The notes under the pieces are model-generated. The model saw only the letters and a program-made list of their open reading frames with translations. It made no database searches and was not told the origin of the DNA. From Dictyostelium discoideum (Eukaryota), in NCBI GenBank assembly GCA_000004695.1, contig CM000155.2, forward strand, positions 3,488,001 to 3,552,000: a stretch of DNA of 64,000 nt. The letters are read 5' to 3'. Shown here one piece after another: positions 13,638-54,911 of the stretch. Made by a program: the position numbers and the translations under genes. Each line of letters starts with the position of its first letter. Within the stretch, counting starts at the first letter, position 1.

Positions 13638-13703
<66 letters not shown>

Positions 13704-14281
13704 TATAAACCAACAATAACAAGTAGTCAAACCCAACCCTCGCTTATGGAAAATAGTAAAGATATCGACAAAAAAGAAAAAATACCTTCAAATATTAATA
13801 ATAATAGAAGCACCACTATTATTTATAAATATCAAGAAGATAATAGTGAAGATTATACGGATGATGGTGATTTTGAAGAGTTTCAAATAAACTCTAATCT
13901 AACCTCAGAATCATCATCAATTGATTCTTTAATAATAAAGGATGGAGTAATAGCAACAACTGTGACATCATCAACAATAAATTGTATTAATGACAATAAC
14001 TTTGATCCTGATCAATTATCATCATCGACATCATCAATAAAGAAACCAAAATTATTCTATTCCATAACTAAAAAGAAATTAGTAAGTCAATCACCACCGC
14101 CACCACAACCACCATTTTTAGCTTCAGCTTCATCATCATCAACAACAACAATAACAACAACAGATTCTCTTGAAAAATCAATTAAAGATTCAACACCAAT
14201 AGCTACGACATTGGTTAATGATTATCAAAATCAAAATCAAAATTTAAATAATGAATCGGCAGCTTCATCATCATCATTATC

Positions 14282-14321
<40 letters not shown>

Positions 14322-18581: not shown

Positions 18582-21110
18582 TTAATATAATTTTAAAATG
18601 AACTTCTTTTGATTTTGACGCCATTTTGGTAATTTATAAAATTCAGATCTATTTTGACCAAATAATCTCTTAAAATCTTGGTTGTTAAGGTAAGACTCTA
18701 ATTTAAATACATCATAAGCTCCAGATTTTTTATTTGCAACAATGGTTTCATATGGGATGTAGGTGAAATTTGGATCGTCAATATTCATTTCATCATTATC
18801 ATCACCAGTTTTTAAATCACTATGTGAATTTAAATCTGAAAAATGATTATCATCACCATCACTATCAATGGTTACAGAGGTTATTGAATTTGAAGAACTT
18901 GTTCTTTGTGAAACTGATAATGGTGATGATTCATATGTTCCTTCACTACCATTTGGATGTTGATTAACAATTGCTGGTGATGATGATAATTGTGATGTTT
19001 GTGATTGTTTTTGTGAATTTGATTTTGTTGTTGTTGGTGGTGTTGTTGTTGGTGGTGTTGTTGTTGGTGGTGGTGTTGTTGTTGGTGGTGGTGTTGTTGT
19101 TGTTGGTGGTGGTGGTGTTGGTGTTGCTGTTGTTGTTGTTGTTGTTGGTGTTGGTGTTGGTGTTGTTGTTGTTGTTGTAGTTGAAGATGGTTGTTGTGAT
19201 AATGTTTGTTCATTATTTTCATCTAATGATACTTTACCTTTTCTTTTTAAAGTAAAATGACCAGTAATCTTTGAAATTGTTGAAACTGATTTTGATCTCG
19301 TTCTTTGTTCTTCAAATGTTGGTGGTGGAGTTATTGAACCATCATCGTTATTATTTCCAGTTTGTAAAGAAGAGCCACCATCATCAGGACCTAATAAATT
19401 ATCAAATTTCTTTTTACGAGTTAATCTTGGTCTACCATTTATAACATTATCAGCTTCATCACAACTTGTATTTGAAGGTGATTCAATTGGTGGTGTTGAT
19501 GAAGTAGAATTTGGTTGTTGTAATGAAGCTGATAATTCACTTGGGTGAATAGTTTTTCTTTTTTGAAATAATGTATTAAAAATTGAAGGTGATGAAGGTG
19601 GAGAAGAAGAAACATTACCATTTCTTGGTGAACTATTATTTGAATTATTATTTGAACCATTACCATTTGCTGCTGATGCTGTAGTTGGAATATTTGTTGC
19701 TAAACTTTGTTGTTGATTACCATTATTATTATTATTATTATTTTGAGCAATCATTGATTTAGATAAAGTTTTTCTACTTGAAGTTGAAATACCACCACCT
19801 ATATTAGTACTACCACCAATACTAGTATTTAACATTATTTTAACAGATTCATCAACATCAGAATTTATAGTTTTTCTATTCTCTCTTAATTGATTAATTA
19901 ATTTATTGATTTCACTTTTTAAATTTGATTTTTCTAATTCATTTTTACAATAAATAGTATAAACCTCTAATTGATCTTGTTGATTAAAATATTGAATTAT
20001 TATAATTGGTTTTTCAGGTTCACTATCATTATGATTTATAGAATTTTGAAGTTGTAATTGTTCCTGTTGTTGTTGTTCTTTATCATGATGATCATCATCT
20101 AAAACTATTGAATTTGAAAGATCAATTATACCATTAAATCTAACTTTTTTATTATTTGAAGATCTTGGTGTACCCATAATTATAATATCATTAAATAGAT
20201 AAATGATTGAATCTTGTTTCTTTTTTGGATTTACAAATAGAAATTCTTTAATAAAGAAACGACTTGGTTGAAATAAATTATTTGGTATTGATTTACCAAC
20301 TAAATTTGAAAGGATTTCAGTAAACTTTTGAAAATTTTCAACTTTTCTTTTACGTTCATTTAAAAAGGTAGCAATACTTTTAATTTTTTCGACAGCTTCT
20401 TTCAATGGTTGATAATCTGGATGATCAGTCCATGTATTTTTAACCAATTCTGTCAATAATAGGAAATATCTTGGTACACGTTGAATTGGTAAAATTAAGA
20501 ATGAATCAATCTCTGATCCACCAATCTCTGGTCTATTATTAACTTCATTCATCATTGAATTGAATTTATCGGAATTCTTTTTAAGATCTTTAATTGCTGC
20601 GATTGAATTATCATAATTTTCAACATAACTACTATAAACCTTTAAAAATGATGAAATCGATAAAAACATATCACTTAATTTCGTATAAATCTTCCAATTG
20701 TTACCACATCTTTTCTCTAATTCCTCTAAAAATGTTTTACCAAAATTATATATAATTATTATATCACTAAATATCATTCTACTTTGTTCTTTACTTATAA
20801 TCTCTTTTTGTAATAATGGTTCCATATAAAATTTTATACATATATTTAAATTTTTAACATAATCTGTTTCTGTTTTTAATATTTCATCTGTAATTTTTTT
20901 TCTATGTATTATATTTCTTTCTAAAATTTAAAATAAATAATTATTATTTTTTATAAAAAAATTGAATAGAAAAAAAAAAAAAAAAAAAACTTACTTAATT
21001 TTAAATAAACTTGTCTAACTTTATAACCTTTCCATAATGCTTGAAAATATAAAAATCCTTTTTCACATTTTTTATCTATTATTTTAAATTGTAAAAAAAA
21101 AAAAATTAAT

Positions 21111-24664: not shown

Positions 24665-27735
<3,071 letters not shown>

Positions 27736-30792: not shown

Positions 30793-31562
30793 ATGTCAAG
30801 AAAAAATGGAATGTTTAATTGTCAACACATTTCAGATGAAGGAAAAGCTGGCCAATGGTAAAATCTATTTTTTATTTTTAGAAAAATAATTAGAGTTCTA
30901 ATTTTTTTTTTTTTTTTTTTTTTTAATAAGGGAGATGAAATATTTACAATTAACAGAATCAAATTTAATTGTTAAAGAAAATGCTGATGATCATATTGTC
31001 AGAAGTACAATTCATCTTTGTGATATAGTTTATGTAGAAAGAGAGAGTAAATCAAAAACCTTATCATTGGATAAACAATCAAACACAATTGAAAATTTAG
31101 ACGATTCAACAAATACTGGTCATGTTTCAGTTGAATTATCAGATTCACAGGAATCAATTTTAATACACATTAAAACTCGTTATAAATCTGAATGGAAAAT
31201 TGAAATGGAATCAGAGGAAACTTATGAGGAATGGTATAATATTTTTAAAAGACACCAAGGTGTAATGAGAGAGATAGACATTAATCCTCCACCACCAAGA
31301 AGAAATCGTAAACCTAAATATACATTTAAAACTTTTTATGAAAATAGAGAATTATTAGGTGAAAGATGGATGCTTTTTGCATTCATAGCCTATACAATCA
31401 TTTTAGTAATTTTATTTTCAGTACTTTGGACTAAATATGTTTTACCAGAAAAAAATATTGTTGAAATTGAATCTCAATGCTTTATTCATTCAGCAGAGTA
31501 ATTATTCCAAAGTTTTTTTTTTCCAAGTTTACTAAAAGAAAAAAAAAAAAAAAATATTAACC

Positions 31563-31600
<38 letters not shown>

Positions 31601-32083
31601 TGTTACAAAATTAAAATTTTAGTGCTGTATATGTTTATAAAAGAAATTATGATTTAGAAATTTTAGTAACTTATCAATTAGAAAATGGTCAATTTTTAAC
31701 AAATTTAATGTATCAATATTGTAGTGGTAATGGATGTCCAGATTTTATGGATGATAATTATAAAGTTGGCACAACTGTAACTTGTCATTATGATGAAGCT
31801 GATCCAAATTATGTATTTTTTGATCTTAGTCAAATGGTTAGAAAGAGATACACAATTACATTTGGTATTTGTGGTGGTCTACTTGGTCCTTGGTTAATAG
31901 TAGTTTTGGTTATAGGGTAAGTTTTACAATGATAATTTTAAAAAAAAAAAGAAAAAAAAAAAAAAAAAACAACTTTTTTAACTCTTTTTTTTTTTAATTT
32001 TTTATTTTTCTATTAGATTTTTATCAAGAAAGAAAATTGCTCAAATGTTTAAAGATTCTTGTTGTCCAGATGATGATGATTAG
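30793..32083 (+). CDS. Two-pass membrane protein of about 330 aa. It has a cytosolic N-terminal domain, TM1, a roughly 95-aa Cys-containing loop, TM2 and a short acidic CCPDDDD tail. Four exons: 30793..30857, 30931..31497, 31623..31916 and 32017..32083.
   Basis: ATG at 30793 (MSRKNGMFNCQHISDEGKAGQ|W). All introns are phase 2 with good signals (GTAAAA/TAAG, GTAATT/TTTTAG, GTAAGT/TATTAG). The frame stays open across each junction: ...IESQCFIHSA-D-AVYVYKRNYDLEILVTYQLENGQF..., ...GPWLIVVLVIG-FLSRKKIAQMFKDSCCPDDDD*. TM1 is WMLFAFIAYTIILVILFSVLW and TM2 is ITFGICGGLLGPWLIVVLVIGFL. The track ends the ORF at 31501 (TAA within the GTAATT donor) and lists 31708..31920 as a separate ORF. Confidence 0.6.
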
Positions 32084-32310: not shown

Positions 32311-35300
32311 TTAAACTTCAATTGAATTAAATACAACATTAGTTGGAGTTGGAGTTGAATTAAATAAAGGACTATTTGAATTATGAGATTTTAATAAGAT
32401 TGATGTATTATTTGAGTTTGTGCTATTTACTAAATTTGAATTTACAGAGTTAACCAAGTTTGATGAAGAGAGTGATCTTGTTTTGGCAGATGATGATGAT
32501 TGTTTTTTACCCTTAATACCAATACTTTGAATGATCTCTTGAAGTGGAATTTCATGGAAATCCTTATGATTATTACTTGATGATTTTTTAAAGTCATCAA
32601 TAAATGAGGATTTACTTGAGTCACTTAATCTTTCTTGATTATTATTATTAATATTATTATTACTATTATTTAATATATTATTAATTTGATTATTTTGAAT
32701 ATTATTTGGATTATTTATACCAATATTATTAATATTTGAATTATTTATTTTATCAGTTGTGTTAATACCACCATAATTTCTTTGTGAATTTAATTTTTCC
32801 ATTTGAATTCTCTTTTTCTTTTTCTTTAACATATTATTATTTGCTTTTGCTTGATGTTGGTTGTAATCAACTCTAAAGCTACTAACATGGTCAGCCAAAT
32901 TTTTATAACCATCAGCTTGCATTAACTTAATTCTTTCACGGAGATAACGTTTCTTTTCTCTATTTCTTTGTCTAAAGAAACCGACTAGAATACAAACTAC
33001 AAAACCCATAACAATTAAAGCAGGAGCAATGATAAGGGCAGCCAATTCTGGAACGTAAAAAGTCATCAAAGAGAGAGCTAAAATAAAGATGATGGTAGCA
33101 ACGAAATTCATTAGACCACTTACCCATTTGACACGAGTTGGAGAGAATAGATAGAAACTACCAATGATCCAACAAATTGGAATAAAGAAACCGAAAACAA
33201 ACATTGTCCAAGCTGGACCAAAACCCATTAAACTACAATAGACACAAGATTCTTCGTTGTTATTGTTTGAACGTTCACTCTCTTCAGAGTGCATAAAATT
33301 GACCATATCTTGCATTCTTGTGAGAATAACATGTTTTTCACGAGAACCTTCAATTTTAACACGATCAAGATCACGATCAATCTTTACAATGTGATCTTTC
33401 TCTTTCTTTAAGGATCTACCAATTTGTTGAGTGGCACCAATATTTTCCAATAATAGTACACGATCATTTACAACCAAAAGATTTGGAACAGTGGTACCAT
33501 CTTGTAGTTTTACTTCACCAGCGACTTTAACAGCATTTGGTAGTACTTCTTTAACCTCTTGAGCCAAGAAACCTTTTTCCTTTACAGTTGTACTCTCTTG
33601 AGTGGTACCATTATTATTTGGATCATCATAACCCATCATTTTCTTACGATCATAATCATAGATTTTCAAACGATTGATTTTATCCCAATGATCAGTATTA
33701 TCAAGACGAATATTTGATTTAATTCTTTGATCTGATGGTTTAAATAATTCACCAGTTACTAAAATATTACCATTTACAGCGAGTGCTTGAGTTGGTGTAG
33801 TTGTATTAATACCAACTTTATTATTGGTATAAATAACTTCTTCCATAAATGGATTGGTATTCCATTTTGCAAATTTATTTTTTCTACTAATTGAACTATT
33901 AGTACTACTACTACCACCACTATTTGTCATAGATTGTTGAGATGGTTGTGGAGTTGATGGTATTGTTGTAGTGGTTGTAGTGGTTGTAGTTATTGGTTGT
34001 TGTTGTTGTTGTTGATGATGATGATGATTATTATTAATTTCTAAAATTGTATGGTGAGATTGTGGAGTTGTTGTATTTTGTAATAATCCATTAGCAAGGT
34101 TTAAACTATTAATCATTTGATTAGTTGATACACCGGGTATATTTTGATTAAGAAATAAACTTTGTTGAATATTTGTATTTGTTAAAGGATTATTTAAAAA
34201 GTTGAATGGATTTTGAATATCTGTTGAAGTGGTATTTGGTGTTGAAGTGGTATTTGCTATTGAAGCAGCGATTGCAGCAGCTGCTTGAGCTGCTTTTAAA
34301 TTTGATAATTGTTGTTGTTGGTGTAGTTGTTGTTGTTGAATTAAATTTGCTAAATCAAGTGTTGTTTGTGGATCATAAACCATTAAATCATCAGAATTAG
34401 TATTATTATTGTTGTTATTATTGTTGATTGTTGAGTTGGTATTAATATTATTTAAGATATTATTGGAATCAATATCAACCATCATAGTTTGACCTAATAT
34501 TAATGGATCTTGCAATAAATTTGAAAAAGTTAATGGATCAATGGTTGTAAGATCACATGGACCATTAAAAATTGAAGTATTATTTCCATCAAGTGTTGTT
34601 GTTATTGAAGGAGCAGTTAAAGTTGGTGATGGTGTTTTTGGTAATGGTGTTGTAGTTGGTATAGTTGAAGTAGTAGTTTCATTAGTTGTTGTTGTTGTTG
34701 TAGTTGGTGTTGGTGTTGGTGTAGTAGTAGTTGTTGTAGTAGTTGTTGTAGTAGTTGGAGATTGATCATCATCAGAATTATCAGAATTTGAAGTATTTAG
34801 AAATGTTTTCATATGTTTATTTGCACTTCCATTTCCATAACCACCATTTGAAGAACTACCACTGCTTCCATTATTACCCATACCACCACCCATACCTCCA
34901 CCCATACCTCCACTACCACTACCACCACCACCTTTACCACCATTTGGAGATGAGTTTGGATCTTTTTTTAAAGATTTATCATGATTTAAGAAACGACCAG
35001 GATTTTGACCACGAACAATCATTGGTGGTGAAATTTTAGATTGAATTGGATAAAATTGTGGGGTGGTGAAATTTTGATTTTCAAAGTTTTTATCAATGAC
35101 AGCATTTAAAGTGATAACGACTCTAAAGAATTGTTGATTTGGATTTGGTTGATCGGGATGAACTCTGGCATTGTTTGAAGTTGCTGAACCAAATTGTAAC
35201 TTATTCCAACAACCTCTACCCTTTACAACTGGTGAAGGCTCAACGGTTAAACGATCTTTTTTACCGGTGGCACCACCCAATTGATGAATTGGTACACGAT

Positions 35301-35398
35301 CATTTTGATCATTACTTGATTGGATATTATTAGCATCGGTAAACTTTAAAACATACAAAGTAAAGAATAAACCATTAACCTCGGATAAATCACCATTA

Positions 35399-35447
<49 letters not shown>

Positions 35448-35661
35448 TTACAAAGATTGTGTTATTTCTATCGAGATTACTCCATGATTCTAAACTACCA
35501 ATTAAATCACAATCAACTTGAAATCTATTTTGTCTATAAAGAATCCATGCACTATCTAATTCTGAATATTGTATATTTTTATCCGTTCTTTTAACTTTAA
35601 ATGAAAATGATCCTGACCTAAAAATTTTAAAATAAAATGAAAAATCTTAATAAAATGAAAA

Positions 35662-35692
<31 letters not shown>

Positions 35693-35977
35693 ACTTACAT
35701 TTCAGATTTTGAATAACTAAATAATTGGAAATATTTTGATGGTGGTGTATAATCTTCCCATTCATCTTTTGAAAATGTTTGTTCGTAATCTCTTTTCAAT
35801 TTCTTTGGGATAGATGTAGATGTAGTCGATGTTAATTGTGTTACCTTATTAAATGCATCAATATGTGACATTGGATGATTATTATTATTATTACTATTAT
35901 TGCCATTGTTACCATTATTGTTAGTATTGCTATTATTATTACTATTATTACTATTATTATTATTATTGTTGTTGTTG

Positions 35978-36015
<38 letters not shown>

Positions 36016-36411
36016 GTTATGAGTATTATGGTGAGCATGATTATTATGATGACTATGATGAGCATGGTTGTAATTATTATGATTGCCACCAAAGTTGTTT
36101 GATGGTGACATTGGTGACAAATGTGAGGCAGGTGATTGTAATGGTGACACTTGAACAGGTGGTGATGATACTATTGATGCCATTGATGTCGAAGATGGTG
36201 GTGATGGTGATGATATATCACTTGATGGTGTGACATATGATGAACCATGATTATTATTATTATTATTATTACTATTACCGTGGATGTTGTTATTGTTACT
36301 ATTGTTGTTGTTGTTATTATTGTTGTTGTTGTGGTTGTTGTTATTATTATGGTTGCTGTTGCTATTGTTGGTATTGTTGCTGTTACTGTTGTTACTATTA
36401 TTATTATTATT

Positions 36412-36447
<36 letters not shown>

Positions 36448-36502
36448 ATTATTGTTGTTACTATTATTATTATTATTATTATTACTATTATTATTATTAT
36501 TA

Positions 36503-36534
<32 letters not shown>

Positions 36535-37386
36535 GTTATTGTTATTGTTATTGTTATTACTTTGAGAAGTATTATTTATATTGTTACCACTATGATTTGA
36601 TAGATATTGATGTGGATGTTGAATATCAGCATATAAATTATTGAATAAATTATCGTAACTGTATGATAAGGGTTGTCCATTACTACCACCATTTTGATGA
36701 TTTCCACTATTATGATGACTATGATTATGATGATGATGACTATTATTACCACCACTACTACCTATATTATTATTATTGTTATTGTTGTTGAGATTATTTC
36801 CAACATGAAATGTATTATTACCATTTTCATTATTTCCATTATGATAATTATTATTACCACTTACAACTTGAACATTTGTTGAGTTTAATATATTATTAAA
36901 AGAACTGGTTAATAGATTTGAACAGCCATTAGAGTTGGATAACTTTGAATTTGAACCAGCATTTGAACTAGAGTTTGAATTATCATTTGTTATATCACTC
37001 ATATTTTTATTAAATTTTAAACTATTACCACTGTTACTTAAATTCGTAAAATTAATATTATTATTATTGTTGTTGTTGTTGTTGTGGTGGTTGTTGTTGT
37101 TGTTGTTGTTGTTGTTGTTAATATTATTATTGTTGTTTAAATAATTTCCACTATTATTTAAAGATTTTGGTTTTGGTGGTAAAAATTTTGAATTGTAAAA
37201 ATCTATATTATTGTTATTATTGTTGTTATTATTTCTACTTGAAGTAGGAGTTGATGGTGTTGATGTATTTGGAGTTGTTGGTGGTGTATTTAATTGTTGA
37301 AAGTCTAAATTATGTACATGTTTTTATTATTTATTTTTTTTATTATTATTTTTTTTTTTTTATTTTATTAGTAATTTTTTCAAAGA

Positions 37387-37422
<36 letters not shown>

Positions 37423-37547
37423 CCCATAAAACCCAATAAAAAAAAAAAAAAAAAATTAAAGAGGAAAAAAATATATACTATTAAATAATTGTTGTTGTCT
37501 TATAACCAAAGGTGGAGATTCTACAATATTAATATTATTATTATTGT

Positions 37548-37580
<33 letters not shown>

Positions 37581-37707
37581 GTGAATTATTATTATTTTCA
37601 GTTCCAAAATTAATATTTGTAATGTTATTATTTGTATTATTATTATTATTATTGTTTGTGCCTTGTTGGTTAATTAAAGAGTTTGTCGAAAATTCATTTT
37701 CATTCAT
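32311..37707 (-). CDS. mrfA: Membrane-tethered transcription factor of the MYRF/MrfA type: N/Q-rich N-terminus, NDT80/PhoG DNA-binding domain, peptidase S74 (intramolecular chaperone auto-processing) domain, TM helices and a C-terminal region. Three exons on the minus strand: 37707..37479, 37304..35699 and 35617..32311. About 1713 aa.
   Basis: NDT80 domain spans the exon 2/3 junction: KSEM-SGSFSFKVKRTDKNIQYSELDSAWILYRQNRFQVDCDLIG...GRGCWNKLQFGSATSNNARVHPDQPNPNQQFFRVVITLNAVIDKNF...FYPIQSKISPPMIVRGQNPGRF. The S74 domain reads NKVGINTTTPTQALAVNGNILVTGELFKPSDQRIKSNIRLDNTDHWDKINRLKIYDYDRKK...GFLAQEVKEVLPNAVKVAGEVKLQDGTTVPNLLVVNDRVLLLENIG. TM segments are GFGPAWTMFVFGFFIPICWIIGSFYLF and LIIAPALIVMGFVVCILVGFF. 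Donors are GTATAT at 37478 and GTAAGT at 35698, with acceptors TTTAG at 37305 and TTTTTAG at 35618. The symbol is assigned by architecture only. Confidence 0.78.
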
Positions 37708-38603
37708 CCTCGTTTGGTACGTTGCAAAAAATTAAAAAAAAAAAAAATATAATTAAAAAAAAAAAAAAAAAAAAAAAAAATTAAATAATTTAATGAGTTA
37801 TTATTTTTATTATTGCTAAATTCTCAGTGAATCCCCTATATAACCCAACAATTTTAAAAAGTAAAAAAAAAACGTTAGTAAAGGACTAAAATTGTGAGGT
37901 TTTTTTTAGTGCGGGTTACAACTGTAACCTATTGAAAAGAAAATAATTTTAATAGTTTTGCCTTTTTTTTTTGAATTTATTTTTTTTTAATTTAAATTTA
38001 ATTTTTTTTTTTAAAATTTTTTTTTTTTTTAAAAAAAACCAGAAAAAATATCTTTGTTATGGTGTTTAATTTCGATTAAAAGACAAAATATGATGTTTAT
38101 CTTAAAAAAAAAAGAAAAAAAAAAAATGAAATTAAAAATAAAAATAAAAAAAAATTAAAAAAAAAATAAATTAAATTAAAAAAGGGTGAAAACAAAGGGT
38201 TAAACATGATGGTACCTTTTATGTAATGGTTATTTTTATTTTTATTTTTATTTTTTTTTTATTTTTATTTATACTTTTTTGTTTTTTTTTCAATTGTTTT
38301 TTATTATTTTTTGATTGGTGTTTATTTTTGGATTTTTTATGAAAATTAAAAAAAAAAAAAAAAAAAAAAAGGGCAAAATAATTTAGTAATGTCCTAAAAA
38401 AAAAAAAAAAAAAAAAAAAACCAAAAAACTTGGAAAGTTTGAAATACCTTTATTTATTATTTTTAAATTAATAATTAAACAAATAAAATAAAAAAAAAAA
38501 AAATTTAAAAAGAATTATTTTTTTTTCTTTTATTTTTTAAAAAAAATTAATAATAAACGATAACAGGATGATTATATGTATTTAATTAATATTTGTTAAT
38601 TTC

Positions 38604-38645
<42 letters not shown>

Positions 38646-38921
38646 AAGAAAATTGGATAGGACACTGGAGTTTTTACACTTGTGGGGTGTTTAAGTGTGA
38701 GTGTGTGTGTGAGATATTGGTGTTGTTCGAAACCTTATCACCACTTGATAAATAATAATAAACATGTTGGGTGGGTTTTTTTTTTTTTTTTTAATTATTT
38801 TTATTTTTATTATTATTATTATTTAATTTTGACACTTTAGGATTCTCTTGGAGAGAAGCTCTTTAACTTGTTTTTGTTGTCTAAATTATTTCAATGTGGG
38901 TGAGAATTTTGGGTGTTGTTG

Positions 38922-38972
<51 letters not shown>

Positions 38973-40379
38973 TGACATATGTGTGGATTTATTATCTTAT
39001 GATCTTTATTAAGCCCAAAATTTTTTTTTTAACTGAAAGCATTATATATGTGTATATTTATATATAATATGTATGTAAATATTTAAAATTATTTACAAGT
39101 AAATAAAGCAAAATTAAAAACACCAAAATAAATTATTTATTATGTGTATAAAATAAAAAAATATTGTTTATTATTACAATTTTGTCTTAGAAAGCTAGGT
39201 TGTGAGACCTTTTTTGGGATTTTGTTTGTGTGCAAGTGGGGAAGGTGGTTATAATGGTGTTTTTTTATTTTATTTTAATTTTTTTGTATTTGGGGTGGTA
39301 TTATTTGAATTTTGTTTTATTTATTTTTGTAGTTTAATTAAATTTTATATATCAAAAATATTTTTATTGTTTTTATGGTTTTTTTTATATTTTTTATATT
39401 TATTATTATTATTTTTATTATTATTATTATTATTATTATTGTTTTTTTTTTTTTTTTAATTTTGGAAATTAATTAAATGATATTAAAATTAAATAAAAAA
39501 ATAATATATATATAATTTTTTATTTTTTTTTTATTTTTTTATTTTATTTTATTTTTTTATTCCTAAATAAACAAAAAGGCTATCGAATTAATCTCCAATC
39601 TATCCATTAATTTTGGAATACATAAATATTTTAAATAATTTAAAAAATAATAAAAAAACAAGGGAAATTAATCTAGATTAACAATAATTAAAAATGACAA
39701 TTGTTGATGTAATGATGACCTGATGATTTGAGTTCTATATTTTTATTTCCATATCAATCAAAGAAAATTAAATTTAATGTAAATTGAATGTTACCTTTTA
39801 TTTAAATTATTCTTTTTTTTATTTTTTTTTATTTTTTTTTAATTTTTTATTTTATTTTTTTCTTTTTCTTTTAATATTATAAAACACCAGGTGTTTGTTG
39901 GTTTTTTTAGTATTGCAAGTGAAATGATTTTATGATTTTTACTATTTTTATTTTTTTTTTTGATTATTTTTGAATTTATTTGTATTTTAAATAATAATAA
40001 AAACTAAAAAAAAAAAAAAAATAAAAAAAATAAATACCAAAAAGAAAAAACAAAAAAACTATGATTGTTTATTTTTATCTTCTTTTAATTTTTGGTGAAA
40101 AATGAGAAAAAAAAAAAAAAAAAAAAAAATTTAAATTTTACCCAAAAAATGGGGAAAAAAAAAAAAAAAAAAAAAAGAATTTTAAAATCTATTGAGAAAA
40201 TGAATACAGAATATGTTTGTTGGATCATTAAACTTTAATAAAATTTTTTTTTTTTTCTTTGTTTTAAATCTTTAAAAAAAAAAAAAAAATGTTTGGAATA
40301 TAATCCATCTTTTACACTTACCTTTTTTTATTTTATTATTTAGTATTTTTTTTGATTAATTGCAAGGTTGGAAAATTTG

Positions 40380-40412
<33 letters not shown>

Positions 40413-40491
40413 AAGTGTCAAAAAAAAAATTATTATAAAAATAAAAATAAAAATTTATTAAAAGAGTCTGGGTAATAATTTAATCGGGGGG

Positions 40492-40529
<38 letters not shown>

Positions 40530-40673
40530 GGGGGGTTTTTTGGAAAAAAAATTAAAAAACCCCAAAAAAAAAAAAAAAATTAAAAAAACCCAAAAAAAAA
40601 TTTTAAAATTAAAAATTAAAATTAAAAATGGAATTTAAAATAAAAAAAAAACCCCTAAAGTAATTATTTTTTT

Positions 40674-40718
<45 letters not shown>

Positions 40719-40887
40719 ATAAAAAGAATTGATTGAAAATTTGTGGATTATAAAAATAGTTTTCCAAAAAAAAAAAATAAAAAAAAAAGAAAAAGAAAAA
40801 AACATAAAATTTATTTAATAAATATTTATTTTTATTTTTAATTTTTAAATTTTTTTTTTTTTTTATTTTTTTTATTTTTTTATTTAT

Positions 40888-43800
40888 TTATAAAGAATCT
40901 TTAATTTTTTTAATTGCGTCAGCAATTTTTTTATTTCTATCTTTAATTTCTTTTGAAGTTGTGAAACCTTTAGATTCTTCTTTATATTTATTTAAAATAT
41001 TTAATAGTTGAGGAATATTTGTAATTAGATTGTAATGTTTTGCTTTTATTTTTGGATCAACGAAATCCTCAGGATTATCAGAGAGTAAAAAGTTTGTAAG
41101 TTGACGTAATTCTACAAAGTAACCAACCATATTTCTACTGGTGGTAGTTGTTCTTTCCTTTTCATTTGCTTTCTCTTTGACGTAAGTTTCAATATATTTC
41201 AAATCAGCATCAAAAGATTTCACACCTTGAAGATTTAATTTCTTTAATTGATCATCATATATCAAAGAGAATAAAGACTCTGAAATATTTTTAAAAGCTT
41301 TGGTAATGAATTCCTCTTTTAAATTTTGAGAGAGTGGAGAAATGAAAGGAAGTGTTACCTCTAAGAAAGTACAAACATCAATTATATAATCTCTTGGACG
41401 ATCATCTATTGCATTTTGAGGGAACCATTCAATATTTGCAGCTGATGACATTAGATCTTCAATCTTTTGTTCACAAAGTTTAATAATTAATTTTTCACCA
41501 TGACTCTTTGTAGTGTAAAGTAAGTTTTGAGAATTTAAAATAACTTTATTAGTTTCATTGACAATCGATTGATTCTTTTGATAATCTTCACCTAAAATTA
41601 AACTATTTAAATAATCTTTAAAGAATGAACAACCTGATATTAAATGTTGTAAATTAATAACTAATTGAATTACTTGTGGTACAGCTTGACTTTGAGTTAA
41701 ATAACTATATAAAACTTCATTGATTTTTTTAATCAATGTATCTGTTGATCTAATTATAAAATTTTCATTCTCTGTTAATTGATCTGAAAATTCATAAAAT
41801 TCTGATATAAATTTTTTAATTAATGTATAAAATTGTGGTACCATTTTTGAAAATAAAAATGATTTTGGTAATCTTTTTAAAAAAATAAAAAAAAAAATTA
41901 ATTATTAGTATTAATATATTAAAAGTTTTTTTTTTAAATTGTTTTTTTTTTTTTTTTTTTACCTTTTTGAAATTTTATCATCTTCATTTTCATCTTCATC
42001 AAAATAATCATCATCATCATCATTATTATTATTATTATTTAAATTTTTATCACCAAATTGAAATTGATTATTATTTAAAGAATTTTGTAATTGTCTTAAT
42101 TGTTGTCTTTCTAAAATATCTAATTTATTTGCTAAAATGAGTGATTTATATTCTTCTAAAGACTCAATGATTAAAGAACAATGTGAATCACGTTCTAAAA
42201 TGATTGTAAATCTTTCAACAGCTTCTTTAATTGAGAATTGACAATATTTCTCTTTCATTGTATCCAAGAAATAATAGAGTGGTTGTACATGATAGGAATA
42301 GAATGACATTGTATTGGTAAAGATTAAAACAAACTTTTTAAATGCAATTAAAGGTTGAGTATCAACACAATGAGTGAATAATTCTTGAAGTACAGAGGTA
42401 ACCTTAACCAAAGCGGAATTCCAACTATCGTTAATGGTTGTTTTTGATAGAAAAGGCTCAGTACTATCGATAACTTTACTTTCTACCATGAAATAACCAA
42501 GAATTTGTTGAAGGAATAATTCCCAAACTTGACCACTCTCTTTTGGTTGAATTACCAATTGGAATTGTAAAAGTCTATTCAATGTATAATAAGCTTGAAA
42601 TTCCTCAAGTTGACCTATACTTGCATGAATGAAAAGACATTGATAAAGTGGATGAAATTGAATATCCGATTCATCAAATGGTGAGAATTGATTGATATCC
42701 TCCTTTAGATCCTTTTCATTGATTTGTTTATTGAAACCAAATGAAGATGGTGTTTTTCCAGAATTTGGTGAATAAATTGGTGCAGTGACAGGTGAATTTA
42801 ATGTTGGATAAAGAGCCAATGAACCAATACTACTAGAGTTTATAATTGGTGGTATATCCAATATTTTATCCCAAATTTGTTCATTCTCACCAAAGGTGGT
42901 CTTGATTTTCAATGGATTGATTTCACGTTCTTTCAAAAGTTTCTTTGAAGTTTGAATCATACCCAATTTACCAATGACAGCGGATTTCTCTTTAATTTCA
43001 ACCATCCATTGATTGAATTCATCTTTTACCAATTTTTTAATCTTTTCCTTCAATACTGGTATATTATAATCCATATTTCTTGCAAATTGAAAATCCGATA
43101 ATTTCTTTAAATAAACGTTATGTAATTGATCCATGTTTTTAATGGCTTGATAGTATTTCTTTTGTTGTACATATTCATCGACTTTCATACCTAAAAGTAT
43201 GGCATATTGACAATTGTTTAAAACTTCTTTTGTTCTCTTTATATTATCTTTGATTTGTTTATAAGCAAATAATTCCTCTGCTTTTGTAACATATTTTCTA
43301 CCAATCTCTTGAAGTTCATAATTTAAATTGATTACATCTTGTTTTAAATCTAAATTCTCACCTTTTAAACCAAGGAATGCAGTTACTGAATTAATGAAAC
43401 CTTCATGATTTTCACCACAAATCTTTTCAATATCTAAATCTTTTTGAGCGATATATGCATTCAATATCTTTATGACTTCTTTTTCTTTATTATTTTCAAA
43501 TACTGATTTAATTGCTGGTCCTAAATGATCGGTATCTGATACTGCAATTAAAAAACTCTCTGAACTAAAGATTTCACTCTCTGTTATCAATGGTTTCGCT
43601 TGATCATCTTGTGAGGAATGAGGTAATGATGATGATCTATCTTGAGAACTTAAACTATAGATACCTTGTTTTTCACCAACTTCTTTCTCCAAATGTCTAG
43701 TTTGCATTGGTTGTCCACTACTTGATAATCCATTTGAATCTATTGATGCTGATAAACCGCCACCACCACCATTACTATCATTACCATAGGAATCAAATTC

Positions 43801-44055
43801 TTGAGCACCACTATGTGTACTTGAATCACTTGTAATTGATCCTGATCTACCTGCTTTTCCAATCTTTTTCAACTCTTTTTTCTCTTTTTTTTTCTCTTTT
43901 TTAACATTTTCTGCTTCTTTTTTCTCTAATCTCTTTTTCTCTTTTTTCTCTCTCTTTTCTTCTTTTTGTTCTTTATCTTTATCTCTAACCATTGTTTTTA
44001 AAATAACACTACCACCAGCAGTGTTAATTTCTTCTTTTTGTTTTTTGTTACTCAT
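40888..44055 (-). CDS. exoc6: Exocyst complex component Sec15 (EXOC6) with a K/E-rich N-terminal extension. Two exons: 44055..41963 and 41872..40888. Phase-2 intron 41962..41873. About 1025 aa.
   Basis: Sec15 N-terminal signature TDHLGPAIKSVFENNKEKEVIKILNAYIAQKDLDIEKICGENHEGFINSVTAFLGLK, then helical bundle domains through ...VDTQPLIAFKKFVLIFTNTMSFYSYHVQPLYYFLDTMKEKYCQFSIKEAVERFTIILERDSHCSL. Exon 2 continues LPKSFLFSKMVPQFYTLIKK...LPFISPLSQNLKEEFITKAFKNISESLFSLIYDD. The donor is AG|GTAAAAA at 41962; the acceptor at 41873 keeps the codon AGA. The symbol follows the metazoan/dictyBase naming convention and is tentative. Confidence 0.78.
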
Positions 44056-44349: not shown

Positions 44350-46137
44350 ATGTTAAAATCTATTAGCATTCTTTCAAACTATTATAAAATAAATTCAATT
44401 TCAACAACACTAACAACAACAACCAAATTTATACCAACATTAATTGTAAATAATTATAATATCAATGAAACAATAATTTCATCACCATTACCATCGCCAT
44501 TATCATTGTCATATCAAATTGCAAATTATTCAAATAAAAAGAGAGGTCCAAATTTAAGAAGAAATTCATATACACATGGACAAGATGTTCGTAAAATTAA
44601 GAGAAGAGAATCAAGAGCAACACAAAATGAAATTTTATTTGAAGATAATATAAAACCAATTGATAGTACAGAGCCAATTCCAAAAAATAAGCCAAGTCAT
44701 TTACATTCAAAACCAATTACTCATAAAGAGAAATTAGAAACTTTAGAACATCATCATCAAAAGAAATTATTACGTGATCAAAAATTTAAAGATCAACAAA
44801 GAAAATTATTAATTAATACATTAGAAGAAGAAAAACAACAACAACAACAACAACAACAACAAGAACAACAAGAACTAGAACAAGAACAACAACAAGATGA
44901 ACAAGATGAAGATCATAATGTTAATAAAAAAAGAAAACAAAAAAAACAACTTGAAAGATTAAAACAATTTGGTTTTGATACTATTGAACCTGAATTATCT
45001 CAATCAGAAGGTAAAACTGAATATAGTAGTTTTACAAATAAGATAGAAGAATTTGAAGATCAATCAACTTTTGAAGCTGATTTATCAACTTTTGGTGGTA
45101 ATAAAAATATTAAATTTGATTTATCAAAGATTCAAGAATTTAATCCAGCTGATGAACTTGAGAATTTATCAAGTTTTGATGATGATGATGATGTCTCCAT
45201 TAGTGAAGAAGCTCATGAGATGACATTGGAAGATGCTCATAAAAGATTCAATTTCTCTGATGATGAATTAGAAATGTTAAATAGAGGTGTAAAGGAAAAA
45301 TTTAAAAAACAACAACAACAACAACAACAAAAACAAAAAGGTATTGAAGAAGATGAAGAGGAAGAAGAAGATGAAGAATTAATTGATGAAATTGAAAAAT
45401 ATGAAACAATTTTAAATGAAAAGAAAAATAAACTATTAATGAAAAAACAAAATAGAAAACAATTAAATCTTGACTTAAAAAAAGAAAAAACTCAACAAAA
45501 TAATTTAGATAAACAATTAAAATCACAAAAATCAAAACAAGAGATAATTGAAAAACAAGGCGAAGAGGACCAAGAAAAAAGAGAGGTTGAAAATTCAAAA
45601 TCAAATAAAAAAGTTTCATCAACTCAAATTAATTATCTTAATAGTCAAAAAGTAATTGAACATATTCAAGAATTACATAATAAAAAGATGAGAGAATCAA
45701 AAACCTACAAAGAGAAAGATTTATCACCAGTTACCATTGATGAAGTTATGAACTTTTTAGCAACCACCCATTTGGATGATTTCTGTGTCATTGATATCTC
45801 AAAGAAATGTACATGGGCTGAATATTTAGTAATTGCAAGTTCAGATTCAACTCGTTTACTTTCAAATACAGAGAAAGATATAATGCAAGCTTTTAAACAT
45901 CGTTTTGAACAATTGCATCCAGCCACTAATAACTCTGATCAATGGAGAGTCGTTGATCTTAATCCTATCGTAATTCATCTCTTTGAAACTCAAACTAGAG
46001 AATACTATGATTTGGAAAATCTTTGGGTAACTAGAAGAGAAACTGATTGGGAATTCGAAGAAAGTTGGGATGATGAAATGACTAGTAGAATTGAAGAGGA
46101 CAAAGAGAATGATGATGATGGTGATGATGAAGAATAA
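44350..46137 (+). CDS. RsfS/Iojap/MALSU1-family ribosomal silencing factor homologue (DUF143), with a roughly 450-aa highly charged coiled-coil-like N-terminal extension and a probable mitochondrial presequence. Single exon, 595 aa.
   Basis: C-terminal domain: SPVTIDEVMNFLATTHLDDFCVIDISKKCTWAEYLVIASSDSTRLLSNTEKDIMQAFKH...WRVVDLNPIVIHLFETQTREYYDLENLW matches the RsfS consensus (..DYFVIASG.S.RH..A..-GDWVL.D.G.VVVHVF....RE.Y.LE.LW). The N-terminus MLKSISILSNYYKINSISTTLTTTTKFIPTL lacks acidic residues and so looks like a presequence. It is transcribed divergently from exoc6 with about 290 bp between the start codons. Confidence 0.75.
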   Translation: MLKSISILSNYYKINSISTTLTTTTKFIPTLIVNNYNINETIISSPLPSPLSLSYQIANYSNKKRGPNLRRNSYTHGQDVRKIKRRESRATQNEILFEDNIKPIDSTEPIPKNKPSHLHSKPITHKEKLETLEHHHQKKLLRDQKFKDQQRKLLINTLEEEKQQQQQQQQQEQQELEQEQQQDEQDEDHNVNKKRKQKKQLERLKQFGFDTIEPELSQSEGKTEYSSFTNKIEEFEDQSTFEADLSTFGGNKNIKFDLSKIQEFNPADELENLSSFDDDDDVSISEEAHEMTLEDAHKRFNFSDDELEMLNRGVKEKFKKQQQQQQQKQKGIEEDEEEEEDEELIDEIEKYETILNEKKNKLLMKKQNRKQLNLDLKKEKTQQNNLDKQLKSQKSKQEIIEKQGEEDQEKREVENSKSNKKVSSTQINYLNSQKVIEHIQELHNKKMRESKTYKEKDLSPVTIDEVMNFLATTHLDDFCVIDISKKCTWAEYLVIASSDSTRLLSNTEKDIMQAFKHRFEQLHPATNNSDQWRVVDLNPIVIHLFETQTREYYDLENLWVTRRETDWEFEESWDDEMTSRIEEDKENDDDGDDEE

Positions 46138-46942: not shown

Positions 46943-47015
46943 GCTCGATTAGCTCAGTCGGCAGAGCGTGGTGCTAATAACGCCACGGTCGCAGGTTCGA
47001 TCCCTGCATCGAGCA
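46943..47015 (+). tRNA. tRNA-Ile (anticodon AAT), 73 nt, no intron, CCA not encoded.
   Basis: Cloverleaf by eye: acceptor GCTCGAT/ATCGAGC; D-arm GCTC-AGTCGGCA-GAGC; anticodon stem TGGTG/CGCCA (one G-U pair) with loop CTAATAA (U33, anticodon AAU); variable loop CGGTC; T-arm GCAGG-TTCGATC-CCTGC with the conserved GTTCGATCC B box. The discriminator is A, followed directly by a TTTTT run. Confidence 0.9.
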
Positions 47016-48698: not shown

Positions 48699-49715
48699 AT
48701 GAATAAATTAATTTTACAAATCATAACATTTGCATTATTGATTAGTTGCTGTTTATCAATTCAACAAAACAGACAATCTTATAATAGAAATAATATTTAT
48801 AATAATATAAAAGAAATAATTGTCGATGATTATTCAGTTCCAAAATTATTAAATTCAACAATTTACTTTAATTCAACTATTCCATTTAATAGCACTTTAT
48901 CATCAGTTAATTCAACATTATCATTTATCAACAGTACACTTGGTCATTTGAATAATACAATTTCATTTAATGGAACAGTATTCTTTAATGGAAGTACACC
49001 ATTGAATGTAACTTCATTAAATTCAACTATGCTTAACATCCAAGAAACTCTCCACTCAATTCGTATTGTTTTAGAATCATTAAACACTACTCTTGTCCAT
49101 ATGAATAGAAGCTTATCTTTGTTCCAATTCAATGAAACCAGTTTAAATTCATCTATTCCTTATTATACATTCCAACCATATTATGATTCAAAATGTAAAT
49201 TCCCAGGTGGAGGTTTAGGTGTTGCCATTAGTCAAAATCAACAAAACATTACCATTTTCAACCAAACCAACATTTGTGCCAACTTTAATTTAACAAGCTC
49301 TGATAACTTTACCGTTCAATACTTTAATAATAACTGTACCTTTGCAAATGAATCAATTCATAACGAAACCTTCTCCGTTAATGATTGTAATTACAGTCCA
49401 TTCTTAAAATCATACTATAGTATTGATTTATCAACTGTTAAATTACCACAATCAACACTTGTTGTAAACTATTACAATAAAAGTTCTTGTAATGAAATTA
49501 ATCAAGAAGGTTTCAACTATATGAGTAATCACACAGTAATTGCTCATACACCAAAAAGAAATCAATCAGGTACAACTTTATTATTCTGTAATGAACAAAA
49601 TATTCCAACAAATACAACTTGTATTTCTACTCATTTTGGAAAACAAAAATGTACAACTGAAACAATTATTGAAAATTGTGATGTTACTAGAAACTTTAGA
49701 ATTACTTGTTTATAA
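48699..49715 (+). CDS. Secreted or cell-surface protein, 338 aa, with signal peptide, about 30 N-glycosylation sequons and a Cys-rich C-terminal half. Single exon.
   Basis: ATG at 48699. The signal peptide MNKLILQIITFALLISCCLS has a predicted cleavage before IQQN. Repeated NxT/S sequons appear (NSTIYFNSTIPFNSTLSSVNSTLSFINSTLGHLNNTISFNGT...). The C-terminal part has 16 Cys (CKFPGGG...CANFN...CTFANE...CNYSP...CNEINQ...CNEQNIPTNTTCISTHFGKQKCTTETIIENCDVTRNFRITCL). It ends at a TAA stop. Confidence 0.7.
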   Translation: MNKLILQIITFALLISCCLSIQQNRQSYNRNNIYNNIKEIIVDDYSVPKLLNSTIYFNSTIPFNSTLSSVNSTLSFINSTLGHLNNTISFNGTVFFNGSTPLNVTSLNSTMLNIQETLHSIRIVLESLNTTLVHMNRSLSLFQFNETSLNSSIPYYTFQPYYDSKCKFPGGGLGVAISQNQQNITIFNQTNICANFNLTSSDNFTVQYFNNNCTFANESIHNETFSVNDCNYSPFLKSYYSIDLSTVKLPQSTLVVNYYNKSSCNEINQEGFNYMSNHTVIAHTPKRNQSGTTLLFCNEQNIPTNTTCISTHFGKQKCTTETIIENCDVTRNFRITCL

Positions 49716-52900: not shown

Positions 52901-53752
52901 CCAATACATCATGTGATTGTAATTGTTTTGATAATTGTCTATGTTGTGATAATTCTTGATCTTGATAATCACCATTTAATAATTCTAAAATAAAACAACT
53001 TGAAAGTTTTAATTTTAATCCAAATAATAATGGTAAATTAAATTCATAAATTATTTCGTTATCATTATCATTATCATTATCGTTATCGTTATCATCATCA
53101 TCATTTGGAATAATTAATAATTGACATCTTTTAATAAATGCTGATGATGATTCATTATCAAATTCAATCCAATCTTTATGACAACCAATTACATTTAATT
53201 TAAATTTCTCTTGATATTTATAAATTGTTGTTATATTTTGTTGAAAAGATTGAGTGAATGGATAATAATGATGATTCATTAATGTAGTTTTACCAACAAC
53301 CACTGAAAATGTATTATTACCACCTAATAATGAATCTGTTAATTTCTTTATAAGTTTACTTTGTTCTGAACCTGGTGGTACCATCATAACTGGTGGTGTT
53401 AATTCAACACTTATCAATGAATCATAATATCTTTCACTAATTCTTGTTAAATATTCATTCATTTCTTTTTCTTTATCAATGAATTCTCCAAATGAATATG
53501 GATTTAAAGATAAATATTCTTTACATTTTTCAATACATTTTTCAATAAATTCTTTTGGGTCATCTAAATAATAAATAATTTTTTTTTTCAATATTAATAT
53601 TTTATTATTTATTTATATTATTATTTTTTAAAAAAAATTAATTACCATTAAAAACAACTTTAAGATCTAAATTTGAATTTTTTAAATTATCTGTTAAATT
53701 CTTTGAAATATTATTATTATTATTATTTATAGATTTAAATTGTTTTAATTTA

Positions 53753-53787
<35 letters not shown>

Positions 53788-54872
53788 ATTATTATTATTA
53801 TTAAAATTATTTATATTTTTAATATAATCAAATAATTGTTGTGGTATAGTTGTTAAGAATTGTTTACCAATAGTTAAAAAGTTTGATAATACAATACGAT
53901 CATTTTGACCAATTTTAGACCAATCAATTGATTTACTACCATTAATTGGATTAATGATTGTATGTAATTCGATTTCTCTCTTCCAAGAGTTTGTCCATAA
54001 ACCGACGCCAACATTAGGTTCAAGATGCCAAAATTTAATTGATTTAACTTCACCTTGAAATTCTTTACCTGTCTTTAAATCTTTTAAAAGATAAATTGAA
54101 CCACCATTATTATTATCAATTGATTTTTCATTTTCATCATTAATATCTAAAGTTGTTGGAGGTATAGTTATATCAATTAATCTACAAGATTCAACAATTT
54201 CACCAGTTTCTTTATTTTTCCAAACTGGTTCAGGTATGAAATCTAACATTAAATAACGTGGCCACCAAATTGGAGTACCTAAAGCATCAAATTCTTTAAT
54301 GGAAGGGAATCTTTCATGATAAGATTTGAATGAATGTTTATAGAGTTCAATTTGTTGATTCCAATAGATAGGACCAAATTTAGAGATATCAGACATAACA
54401 TTTCTACCAGCTTCTTCTAAACCATTTAAAAATTGTTGTCTTAATGATGATTTAATTAATTGAGGATTTAAAATTTCTAATGAACCCTGTCTACCAACAT
54501 TTGTTGCAATTTGTAAACTATTTAATGAAATTGGATGTGAAGTTTGCCAATTTAATGGATCATCTAAACAAAGTTGTTGATTATCATTATCACTATCCTT
54601 GTTGTTTTGATGATTTGGTTTTGCACATTTTGAACTTGAAAGAATTAAACGAACTGAACCATAAATTGAATCCTTTGGGAATCTATTCAATTCAACTGCT
54701 ATACCATAATCATTAATTTGTCTTTCAATCATTCTTTTAATTGATCTATGTGACATCCAAAATAATGGTGATGCAATGATTGCACGTTGAATTACAACAT
54801 TTTGAGATTTTGAAATATGTAATATAAATTCACATGCATTATTAATTGATTTACTACATAATTTTATACCAA

Positions 54873-54911
<39 letters not shown>

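Follow-up and report, generated by a model that had tools for sequence, protein, structure and literature searches.

MrfA of Dictyostelium (DDB_G0284183, UniProt Q54PT9) and the metazoan factors MYRF and MYRFL are the described systems closest to the gene analyzed here. In MrfA (Senoo et al. 2012, 2013) a low-complexity N-terminus is followed by an NDT80-type DNA-binding domain (DBD), an ICA/CIMCD domain and an anchor near the C-terminus. The 104-kDa precursor is cut at S767 within the peptide SDLRIKYDLK, leaving a C-terminal fragment of 19 kDa with one transmembrane (TM) segment and a short tail; the S-x4-K dyad, S767 and K772, was shown to be essential (PMC3828593). The catalytic Ser and Lys of MYRF and its GVIAQ trimerization motif are described in PMC3742443 and PMC3742440; the trimerization role of the G-V/F-I/L-A-Q motif comes from PMC3742440. 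Parts of the architecture occur elsewhere. Phage endosialidase and tailspike chaperone domains (endoNF CIMCD 3gw6, GP12 3gud) have PF13884 and the Ser/Lys self-cleavage chemistry in common with the protein studied here, but what they release is a trimeric fibre rather than a transcription factor, and they have no membrane anchor. Yeast Ndt80 and fungal PhoG proteins share the DBD fold (PF05224; Foldseek E 3e-9 to 2e-7), whereas Ndt80 is without an ICA domain or a membrane anchor and is about 11% identical.

Gene structure and genomic identity

The gene is encoded on the minus strand of the window, i.e. the whole 64,000-nucleotide stretch of D. discoideum DNA that was analyzed. The three-exon model of the original prediction is correct in all its coordinates (Table 1). 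The reading frame of exon 1 is open from the ATG at 37707, and the spliced coding sequence is in frame with one terminal stop and encodes 1713 aa (189 kDa), a length that is reached by one combination of introns only (37478-37305 plus 35698-35618). Given this ATG, the donor at 37478 is the sole intron-1 donor that keeps the frame open; it had been described as the weaker GTATAT, and this sequence is indeed present and non-consensus. In the frame of exon 2 about 100 open codons precede the first ATG (37002), and a stop occurs 7 codons before the acceptor. Exon 3 has its first in-frame ATG at codon 199, already within the DBD. Both exons need splicing because the frame is open upstream of ATG 37002 and exon 3 has no early ATG. 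Two D. discoideum assemblies differ by 16 nt, wholly within poly-T runs of intron 1 (37386-37439), as is expected of non-coding sequence. The spacing across the intron-2 junction is within 2 residues of that in the homologue P0004 and in human MYRF.

The proteins encoded by neighbouring genes are exact matches to DDB_G0293926, DDB_G0293938 and DDB_G0293940, which identifies the locus as part of chromosome 6 of D. discoideum AX4; the Sec15 gene is located among these neighbours. The MYRF-type gene sits between DDB_G0293926 and DDB_G0293938. An independent gene call by NCBI for this locus has a start that maps to 37707 and a product of 1713 residues, and thus agrees with our model in start coordinate and length, the two properties compared, rather than residue by residue. 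A search of a protein index found no entry for the 1713-aa protein or for dictyostelid orthologues. Forbes et al. (2019; PMC6873476, supplement) list DDB_G0293934 as one of three Dictyostelid genes that combine NDT80, chaperone and TM regions; it is the only one of the three with a 02939xx identifier, and their transcriptome table gives it as prestalk-specific. On the basis of gene order and this list, not of a sequence match, the gene is very probably DDB_G0293934, a paralogue of mrfA that encodes a membrane-tethered transcription factor of the MYRF family with putative self-cleavage and release. The gene has already been catalogued: a 2019 publication covers the family to which it belongs, its set of domains and how it is conserved throughout the Dictyostelia. 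Functional data on DDB_G0293934 were not found in the literature searched. Since it is annotated in the genome of a model organism, the locus has little discovery value. It is a good validation case: the three exons, with a non-consensus donor among their splice sites, were read correctly from the DNA letters alone. Two of the three MYRF-type factors of Dictyostelium are uncharacterised, and the gene bears on whether factors of this self-cleaving, membrane-tethered type have redundant roles in prestalk differentiation.

Table 1. Features of the gene and its product; positions refer to the window.
Feature	Positions	Strand	aa	Description
Exon 1	37707-37479	-	1-76 + first base of codon 77	229 nt; N-rich low complexity
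Intron 1	37478-37305	-		174 nt; GTATAT...TTTAG; phase 1; 10.9% GC
Exon 2	37304-35699	-	77-612, partial codons at both ends	1606 nt; N/S/H-rich low complexity, then PKKLKRD, then first DBD strands
Intron 2	35698-35618	-		81 nt; GTAAGT...TTTAG; phase 2; 7.4% GC; splits codon Met612
Exon 3	35617-32311	-	612-1713	stop 32313-32311; ORF 32311..35358 extended upstream to acceptor
PKKLKRD basic motif	35788-35808	-	576-582	from sequence
NDT80/MYRF-type DBD	34987..35766	-	~590-822	contains intron 2 and poly-N insertion (aa ~671-685)
NDT80_PhoG envelope	34984-35547	-	636-823	Pfam profile
Linker	33847..34965	-	~830-1202	low complexity (G/S, poly-T, N, Q rich) by composition; between DBD and ICA stalk
Beta-helical stalk + ICA (Peptidase_S74)	33403..33846	-	1203-1350	Pfam, 7dc3 match, Foldseek
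Ser1240	33733-33735	-	1240	dyad residue; predicted scissile bond Pro1239/Ser1240
Lys1245	33718-33720	-	1245	dyad residue
GFLAQE	33556-33573	-		trimerization-motif counterpart
ENIGATQ	33427-33447	-		conserved motif
Membrane anchor	32971..33219	-	1412-1494	three hydrophobic segments; Kyte-Doolittle scan
TM1		-	1412-1437	GPAWTMFVFGFFIPICWIIGSFYLFS; Kyte-Doolittle
TM2		-	1447-1468	Kyte-Doolittle
TM3		-	1471-1494	Kyte-Doolittle
C-terminal tail	32314..32970	-	1495-1713	first 20 aa strongly basic (9 K/R), remainder of low complexity and rich in N/S

DNA-binding domain, stalk and ICA domain

The product contains the NDT80/PhoG domain that had been named from NRFQ (aa 642-645) and PMIVRGQNPGRF (aa 810-821). 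The profile NDT80_PhoG (PF05224; Pfam cutoff 27 bits) scored 58.1 bits for the domain by itself, and leaving out the poly-N insertion raised the score to 65.3 bits. With the full-length 1713-aa protein hmmscan did not report the domain because of the low-complexity flanks; the locus shows that NDT80 can be missed in this way. By sequence the closest solved structure is the human MYRF DBD 5yhu (phmmer, E 8e-8). The AF2 model of the DBD (pTM 0.73) had the human MYRF DBD as its best Foldseek match (E about 1e-11, TM 0.72-0.77), followed by yeast Ndt80, and the motifs NRFQ, NNAR and VRGQNPGRF are kept and align to segments of the MYRF DBD. Intron 2 had been placed inside the NDT80 domain; this is true of the structural DBD as seen in MYRF crystal structures, but codon 612 is 24 residues upstream of the Pfam envelope.

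A phage-tailspike-like S74 module is likewise present. Peptidase_S74 (PF13884; Pfam cutoff 22 bits) scored 45.4-48.3 bits at aa 1240-1309, and MyRF ICA 7dc3 is the closest solved structure by sequence (phmmer, E 2.6e-24 over 148 residues). The predicted fold, a monomer model, matched 7dc3 in Foldseek with E 3e-8 and the phage chaperones 3gw6/3gud weakly (E 0.1-0.4). Metazoan MYRF/MYRFL structures (5yhu, 5zhu, 5h5p, 7dc3) are the best matches in sequence and structure for the DBD as well as for the stalk and ICA domain. Identity to them is about 20% for the DBD and 34% for the ICA domain. The metazoan proteins also share the dyad, the GVIAQEVKEILP/GFLAQEVKEVLP motif and an anchor after the ICA domain. 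S1240-D-Q-R-I-K1245 aligns with S767-D-L-R-I-K772 of MrfA (PMC3828593); in 7dc3 the aligned segment is ADLRAK. The trimerization motif GFLAQEVKEVLP aligns with GVIAQEVKEILP of MYRF, and its G, A, Q and E do not vary among homologues. Alignment of 8-11 homologues showed no variation in the patterns P-S-D-x-R-x-K, G-x-x-A-Q-E and E-N-I-G-A-T-Q.

The two other MYRF domains, for which a check had been suggested, gave a different picture. MYRF_ICA (PF13887, formerly MRF_C1) scored 12.3 bits over profile positions 1-20 of 36, below its cutoff of 24.1, and a Pfam profile search of the product found no match to MRF_C2 at E <= 10; in both respects the product differs from metazoan MYRF, which has MRF_C2 as a lumenal domain. 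The stretch that matches PF13887 below the cutoff also aligns to 7dc3, and the homologues are likewise under the cutoff, with 16-17 bits. MrfA too is without a long region after the TM segment (Senoo et al., PMC3828593), and MRF_C2 is not a requirement across the family.

The N-terminal 600 aa are of low complexity, as described before, but they are not almost entirely N/H/S (N, S and H together 62%, N alone 44%). PKKLKRD is a candidate nuclear localisation signal. A disordered linker of ~370 aa, in which the scan found no Pfam match, separates the DBD from the trimeric stalk; the human MyRF fragments that have been crystallised have a far shorter one.

Proposed mechanism and alternative readings

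Homology to MrfA and MYRF suggests that the protein probably trimerizes, cleaves itself and releases its DNA-binding part. The hydrophobic segments near the C-terminus would hold the 189-kDa precursor in the ER membrane, and most of the polypeptide would lie in the cytosol. The stalk and ICA domain would drive homotrimerization, and the Ser1240/Lys1245 dyad would cut the Pro1239-Ser1240 bond; an N-terminal fragment of ~135 kDa with the NDT80-type DBD and PKKLKRD would thereby be freed, while a fragment of ~54 kDa would be left in the membrane. The freed trimer may then enter the nucleus and regulate putative target genes, probably in prestalk cells. The original assignment to the MYRF/MrfA-type membrane-bound factors is borne out by the two domains above cutoff, the closest structures, the dyad and the downstream anchor.

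The gene shares with mrfA the organism, the order of domains and a type of low-complexity sequence that is encoded by AAC repeats (PMC3828593), so that it could be taken for mrfA itself. The probability of this is negligible: the product is 189 kDa and not 104 kDa, it has SDQRIKSNIR at S1240/K1245 in place of the MrfA peptide at 767/772, its C-terminal fragment would be 54 kDa with three hydrophobic segments and a tail of ~220 aa, and the neighbouring identifiers are DDB_G02939xx, not 02841xx. The cleavage-site peptide and the size led us to reject mrfA. The comparison with MrfA called for in the original prediction thus leads to a paralogue, which resembles MrfA in its dyad (SDLRIK in MrfA, SDQRIK here) and in a prestalk association that was found by experiment for MrfA and is taken from the transcriptome table for DDB_G0293934 (PMC6873476).

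Another reading concerns the 5' end. Exon 1 could belong to another transcript or be non-coding, with a start at ATG 37002 and a two-exon product of 1536 aa; this would fit with the low GC content (17.5%) and nearly pure poly-N coding of exon 1 and with its non-consensus donor. However, the open codons between 37304 and 37002 include no ATG, GTG or TTG, and the frame closes just upstream of the acceptor; non-coding DNA of Dictyostelium is full of TAA codons. The independent gene call has its start at 37707 and a product of 1713 aa instead of 1536, the difference between assemblies is restricted to the proposed intron 1, and the 1536-aa product is also without a match in the protein collection. 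We therefore regard a start at 37002 as very improbable. It is very improbable, too, that this member of the MYRF family no longer has the release mechanism and is an uncleaved, or a cleaved but membrane-retained, multi-pass protein with a non-transcriptional role. Such a role would agree with an anchor unlike that of MrfA and MYRF (three conserved segments, the first of them rich in G and P, and a basic tail), with PF13887 under its cutoff and with the absence of MRF_C2. Against it, the Ser/Lys dyad, GxxAQE and ENIGATQ, which comprise every residue known to matter, are invariant across the subfamily, the three DBD motifs align to MYRF, and the TM domain is dispensable for the cleavage of MrfA (PMC3828593).

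Membrane anchor and related proteins

Transmembrane helices had been predicted after the S74 module, and the hydropathy scan indeed has peaks at aa 1411-1438 and 1441-1496, C-terminal to the ICA domain, giving three hydrophobic segments. MrfA and MYRF have been described with one TM segment. The conserved three-segment anchor with its basic tail and the missing MRF_C2 are the only departures of the mrfA paralogue from the family pattern. In the AF2 model the anchor forms confidently predicted helices (pLDDT 75-91), and TM1 consists of two short helices broken at FFIP. TM1 is conserved and rich in G and P.

Three full spans and a cytosolic N-terminus would make the basic stretch after TM3 face the lumen, against the positive-inside rule. 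We tentatively consider, as a possible but rather doubtful reading, that the paralogue together with the environmental homologues makes up a separate MYRF subfamily with an anchor other than one plain type-II span: TM1 could be re-entrant, TM2 and TM3 would form a hairpin and the basic tail would be cytosolic. If this is true, the protein would have essentially no lumenal domain, and the ~54-kDa fragment left in the membrane after self-cleavage would face the cytosol and have a function or regulation of its own. The gene also bears on whether a multi-segment anchor alters the control of release.

The environmental and EukProt homologues (P0001-P0006 and P0024; 32-41% identity) combine NDT80, S74 and a three-segment anchor, which is conserved in P0001-P0006. 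They share the anchor signature GPAW[TS]M..GFF[IL]P..W..G..Y.FS, followed by a short basic loop, two further helices and a basic tail, and the sub-threshold PF13887. Where complete they are much shorter, about 520-650 aa, because they are without the low-complexity expansions of Dictyostelium.

Gene model and independent annotation

The original prediction had placed a gene of the MYRF/MrfA type in three exons, and the sequence of the minus strand agrees with this model. Removal of the two GT...AG introns joins the three ORF pieces in one frame of 1713 aa, in which the only stop is the terminal one. The window has a GC content of about 22% and its ORFs are rich in N and Q; within the gene the introns have a GC content of 7-11%, compared with 17-30% in the exons. 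The frame of exon 2 is open over about 100 codons 5' of its first ATG, at 37002, and offers no other start there; a stop closes this frame 7 codons upstream of the acceptor. In exon 3 the first ATG is codon 199, already within the NDT80/PhoG-type DNA-binding domain (DBD). Because of this open upstream frame and this late ATG, exons 2 and 3 must be spliced. Given the ATG at 37707, the donor at 37478 is the only one that preserves the frame; 1713 aa are reached by the predicted intron pair only.

Features of the gene and of the surrounding window
Feature	Position	Strand	Remarks
Two-repeat Myb protein	7608-8906	-	
Double-zinc-ribbon + RhoGEF ORF	12795-15299	+	ORF cut; further exons likely
DDB_G0293926	16661-18154		Exact AX4 protein match, single-exon ORF
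RhoGEF with villin headpiece	18582-20825	-	
Ser/Thr kinase ORF	26426-27619	+	Exact translation absent from protein collection; probably more exons
Small two-ORF membrane protein	30935-31920	+	Without Pfam match
Exon 3	35617-32311	-	
Basic stretch after anchor	32911-32970	-	9 K/R in 20 aa
Three hydrophobic segments	32971-33219	-	aa 1412-1494; kept in product and homologues
Intron 2	35698-35618	-	81 nt, GTAAGT...TTTAG
Exon 2	37304-35699	-	
Intron 1	37478-37305	-	174 nt, GTATAT...TTTAG
Exon 1	37707-37479	-	Starts at ATG 37707
Sec15/exoc6 exocyst subunit	40888-44055	-	1025 aa; one 90-nt intron, 41962-41873, GTAAAA...AAAAAG
DDB_G0293938, RsfS-domain gene	44350-46134		Exact AX4 protein match, single-exon ORF
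tRNA-Ile (anticodon AAT)	46943-47015	+	Between DDB_G0293938 and DDB_G0293940
DDB_G0293940, CfaA_B_C-family gene	48699-49712		Exact AX4 protein match, single-exon ORF
Two very large ORFs	49923-62826	-	1222 and 3062 aa; one 4337-residue gene call in public assembly

The exact protein matches in the table are to D. discoideum AX4. In the public locus around DDB_G0293938, Sec15/exoc6 (1025 aa) adjoins this gene and beyond it lies a minus-strand gene call of 1713 residues, which starts at the equivalent of 37707 and extends past the edge of the fetched locus. Since start and length are shared, the predicted model equals the independent annotation in both; the agreement is one of start coordinate and length, not residue by residue. 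Between the public assembly and the window there is a difference of 16 nt, wholly within poly-T runs at 37386-37439 in intron 1. The two agree in all of the 2945 bases compared, from 34306 to 37250, a stretch with intron 2, the larger part of exon 2 and the 5' part of exon 3. An exact look-up in a collection of 15 billion proteins found the proteins of neighbouring genes, but not the 1713-aa product or an alternative of 1536 aa. Homology searches with the DBD, with Sec15 and with the intramolecular chaperone autocleavage (ICA) domain plus anchor gave no match above 41% identity and no Dictyostelium protein. Relatives of D. discoideum seem to be absent from the index searched.

DNA-binding and autocleavage domains

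Peptidase_S74 was the sole match when the full-length protein was scanned with hmmscan (aa 1240-1309; 45.4 bits, cutoff 22); NDT80_PhoG was not reported for the full 1713-aa protein at E ≤ 0.1. Scanned alone, aa 576-835 matched NDT80_PhoG with 58.1 bits (cutoff 27), and with 65.3 bits after omission of a poly-N insert. The NDT80 domain is masked in the full-length scan by its low-complexity flanks and by this insert (aa ~671-685) within the domain. Both predicted domains were thus recovered, NDT80 only once the flanks were removed. Of the two further domains that had been suggested, MRF_C1 (now MYRF_ICA, PF13887) scored 12.3 bits, below the cutoff of 24.1, and MRF_C2 gave no match in the Pfam profile scan of the product.

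Among solved structures the DBD matched that of human MYRF (5yhu, E 8e-8), and the stalk plus ICA domain matched the MyRF ICA structure 7dc3 (E 2.6e-24 across 148 residues). The AF2 model of the spliced DBD has a pTM of 0.73 and a pLDDT of 76-82 over the exon junction. Its best fold match is again the human MYRF DBD (E ~1e-11, TM 0.72-0.77, 234-239 of 260 alignment columns), followed by yeast Ndt80 and then by p53 and velvet domains. For an AF2 monomer of aa 1216-1530 the best match was 7dc3 (E 3e-8); the phage chaperones 3gw6 and 3gud followed weakly.

The S-x4-K spacing in S1240-D-Q-R-I-K1245 is identical to that of the dyad S767/K772 in MrfA, the characterised D. discoideum paralogue, where both residues are essential for cleavage (PMC3828593). 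In the comparison with 7dc3, GFLAQEVKEVLP of the product aligned to GVIAQEVKEILP of MYRF. Among 8-11 homologues the motifs P-S-D-x-R-x-K, G-x-x-A-Q-E and E-N-I-G-A-T-Q do not vary. The DBD segments RQNRFQV, SNNAR and MIVRGQNPGRF align to KKNHFQV, NNMR and IIVRASNPGQF of MYRF. Basic residues of the MYRF DBD are reported to be necessary for DNA binding (PMC3742440, PMC3742443). Immediately N-terminal to the DBD is the motif PKKLKRD (aa 576-582), a putative nuclear localisation signal.

Intron 2 had been predicted to interrupt the NDT80 domain. Its junction is codon 612, 24 residues upstream of the Pfam NDT80 envelope (aa 636-823). A weak N-terminal phmmer segment to 5yhu starts at aa ~590, the fold alignment of the DBD spans nearly the whole query, and the spacing between a conserved aromatic residue that precedes the junction and an A-W/F motif that follows it is 34 residues, compared with 32 both in P0004, an environmental/EukProt homologue, and in MYRF. 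This evidence places the junction inside the structural DBD; the prediction is right if the structural domain is meant and wrong for the envelope given by Pfam. Close DBD homologues with 38-40% identity occur on two environmental contigs (P0024 and P0025). They have the appearance of gene calls made in the prokaryotic style on eukaryotic contigs with introns, and the similarity ends abruptly past 'GNVS' in the stalk in both. P0024 begins ~8 residues past the intron-2 position, which hints that this position is shared with its source.

The domain and motif content was observed directly. The most likely mechanism, every step of it inferred from homology, is as follows. The precursor would insert in the ER membrane via its C-terminal hydrophobic segments, and the stalk and ICA domain would drive trimerisation. 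Ser1240, activated by Lys1245, would then attack the Pro1239-Ser1240 bond and a ~135-kDa trimer with the DBD would be set free. This trimer would enter the nucleus under developmental regulation and control prestalk-cell genes.

Membrane anchor and identity among the dictyostelid paralogues

The layout of the anchor is conserved in the product and in six environmental/EukProt homologues with NDT80 and S74 domains (P0001-P0006). Segment 1 is rich in G and P (GPAW[TS]M..GFF[IL]P..W..G..Y.FS) and is followed by a loop of 9 residues with 2-3 K/R; segments 2 and 3 are helices with a very short turn between them, and the next 20 residues contain 7-12 K/R across the homologues. In contrast, MrfA (PMC3828593) and MYRF have been described with one TM. 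If all three segments were full spans and the N-terminus cytosolic, the basic stretch would be lumenal, contrary to the positive-inside rule. AF2 models segment 1 as two short helices with a break at FFIP (pLDDT 84-91); this model would fit a first segment that is re-entrant and a tail on the cytosolic side, as a detail and not a finding. The three-segment anchor departs from the published picture of MrfA and MYRF.

Three NDT80 genes are listed for Dictyostelia: mrfA (DDB_G0284183), DDB_G0292186 and DDB_G0293934 (Forbes et al. 2019, PMC6873476). Because of the identifiers of its neighbours we infer that the gene at 32311-37707 is DDB_G0293934, a label given by gene position. DDB_G0292186 was rejected as the identity, since the identifiers of the neighbours are of the 02939xx series and DDB_G0292188, a vWA protein of 750 aa, does not lie nearby. 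The number of membrane segments already separates the gene from mrfA, and further differences rule out this identity. The MrfA precursor has 104 kDa and is cleaved at S767 in SDLRIKYDLK, leaving a 19-kDa fragment and a short post-anchor tail (PMC3828593), whereas the product here has 189 kDa, a predicted cleavage site at S1240 in SDQRIKSNIR, a predicted fragment of 54 kDa (474 aa) and a tail of ~220 aa. Table 2 of PMC6873476, as read from flattened text, apparently has 293934 in the prestalk-specific column. A literature search under the name 'mrfB', and by DDB_G identifier within main texts, yielded no paper in which DDB_G0293934 is named or characterised. Both the gene and the family to which it belongs are already known from literature and genome annotation, and the original prediction was essentially right in observation and interpretation.

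Neighbouring genes

For the two large ORFs of 49923-62826 Pfam gave a single, weak signal, a GHMP_kinases_N match (25.9 bits) in the smaller one; the remainder matched no Pfam family. The two-exon model of Sec15 has the annotated length. Between its stop and the start of the 1713-aa gene lies a 3.2-kb spacer (37708-40887) with 13-18% GC, long poly-T/poly-A runs and short poly-F ORFs only. For intergenic DNA in a window so dense in genes, this spacer seems long.
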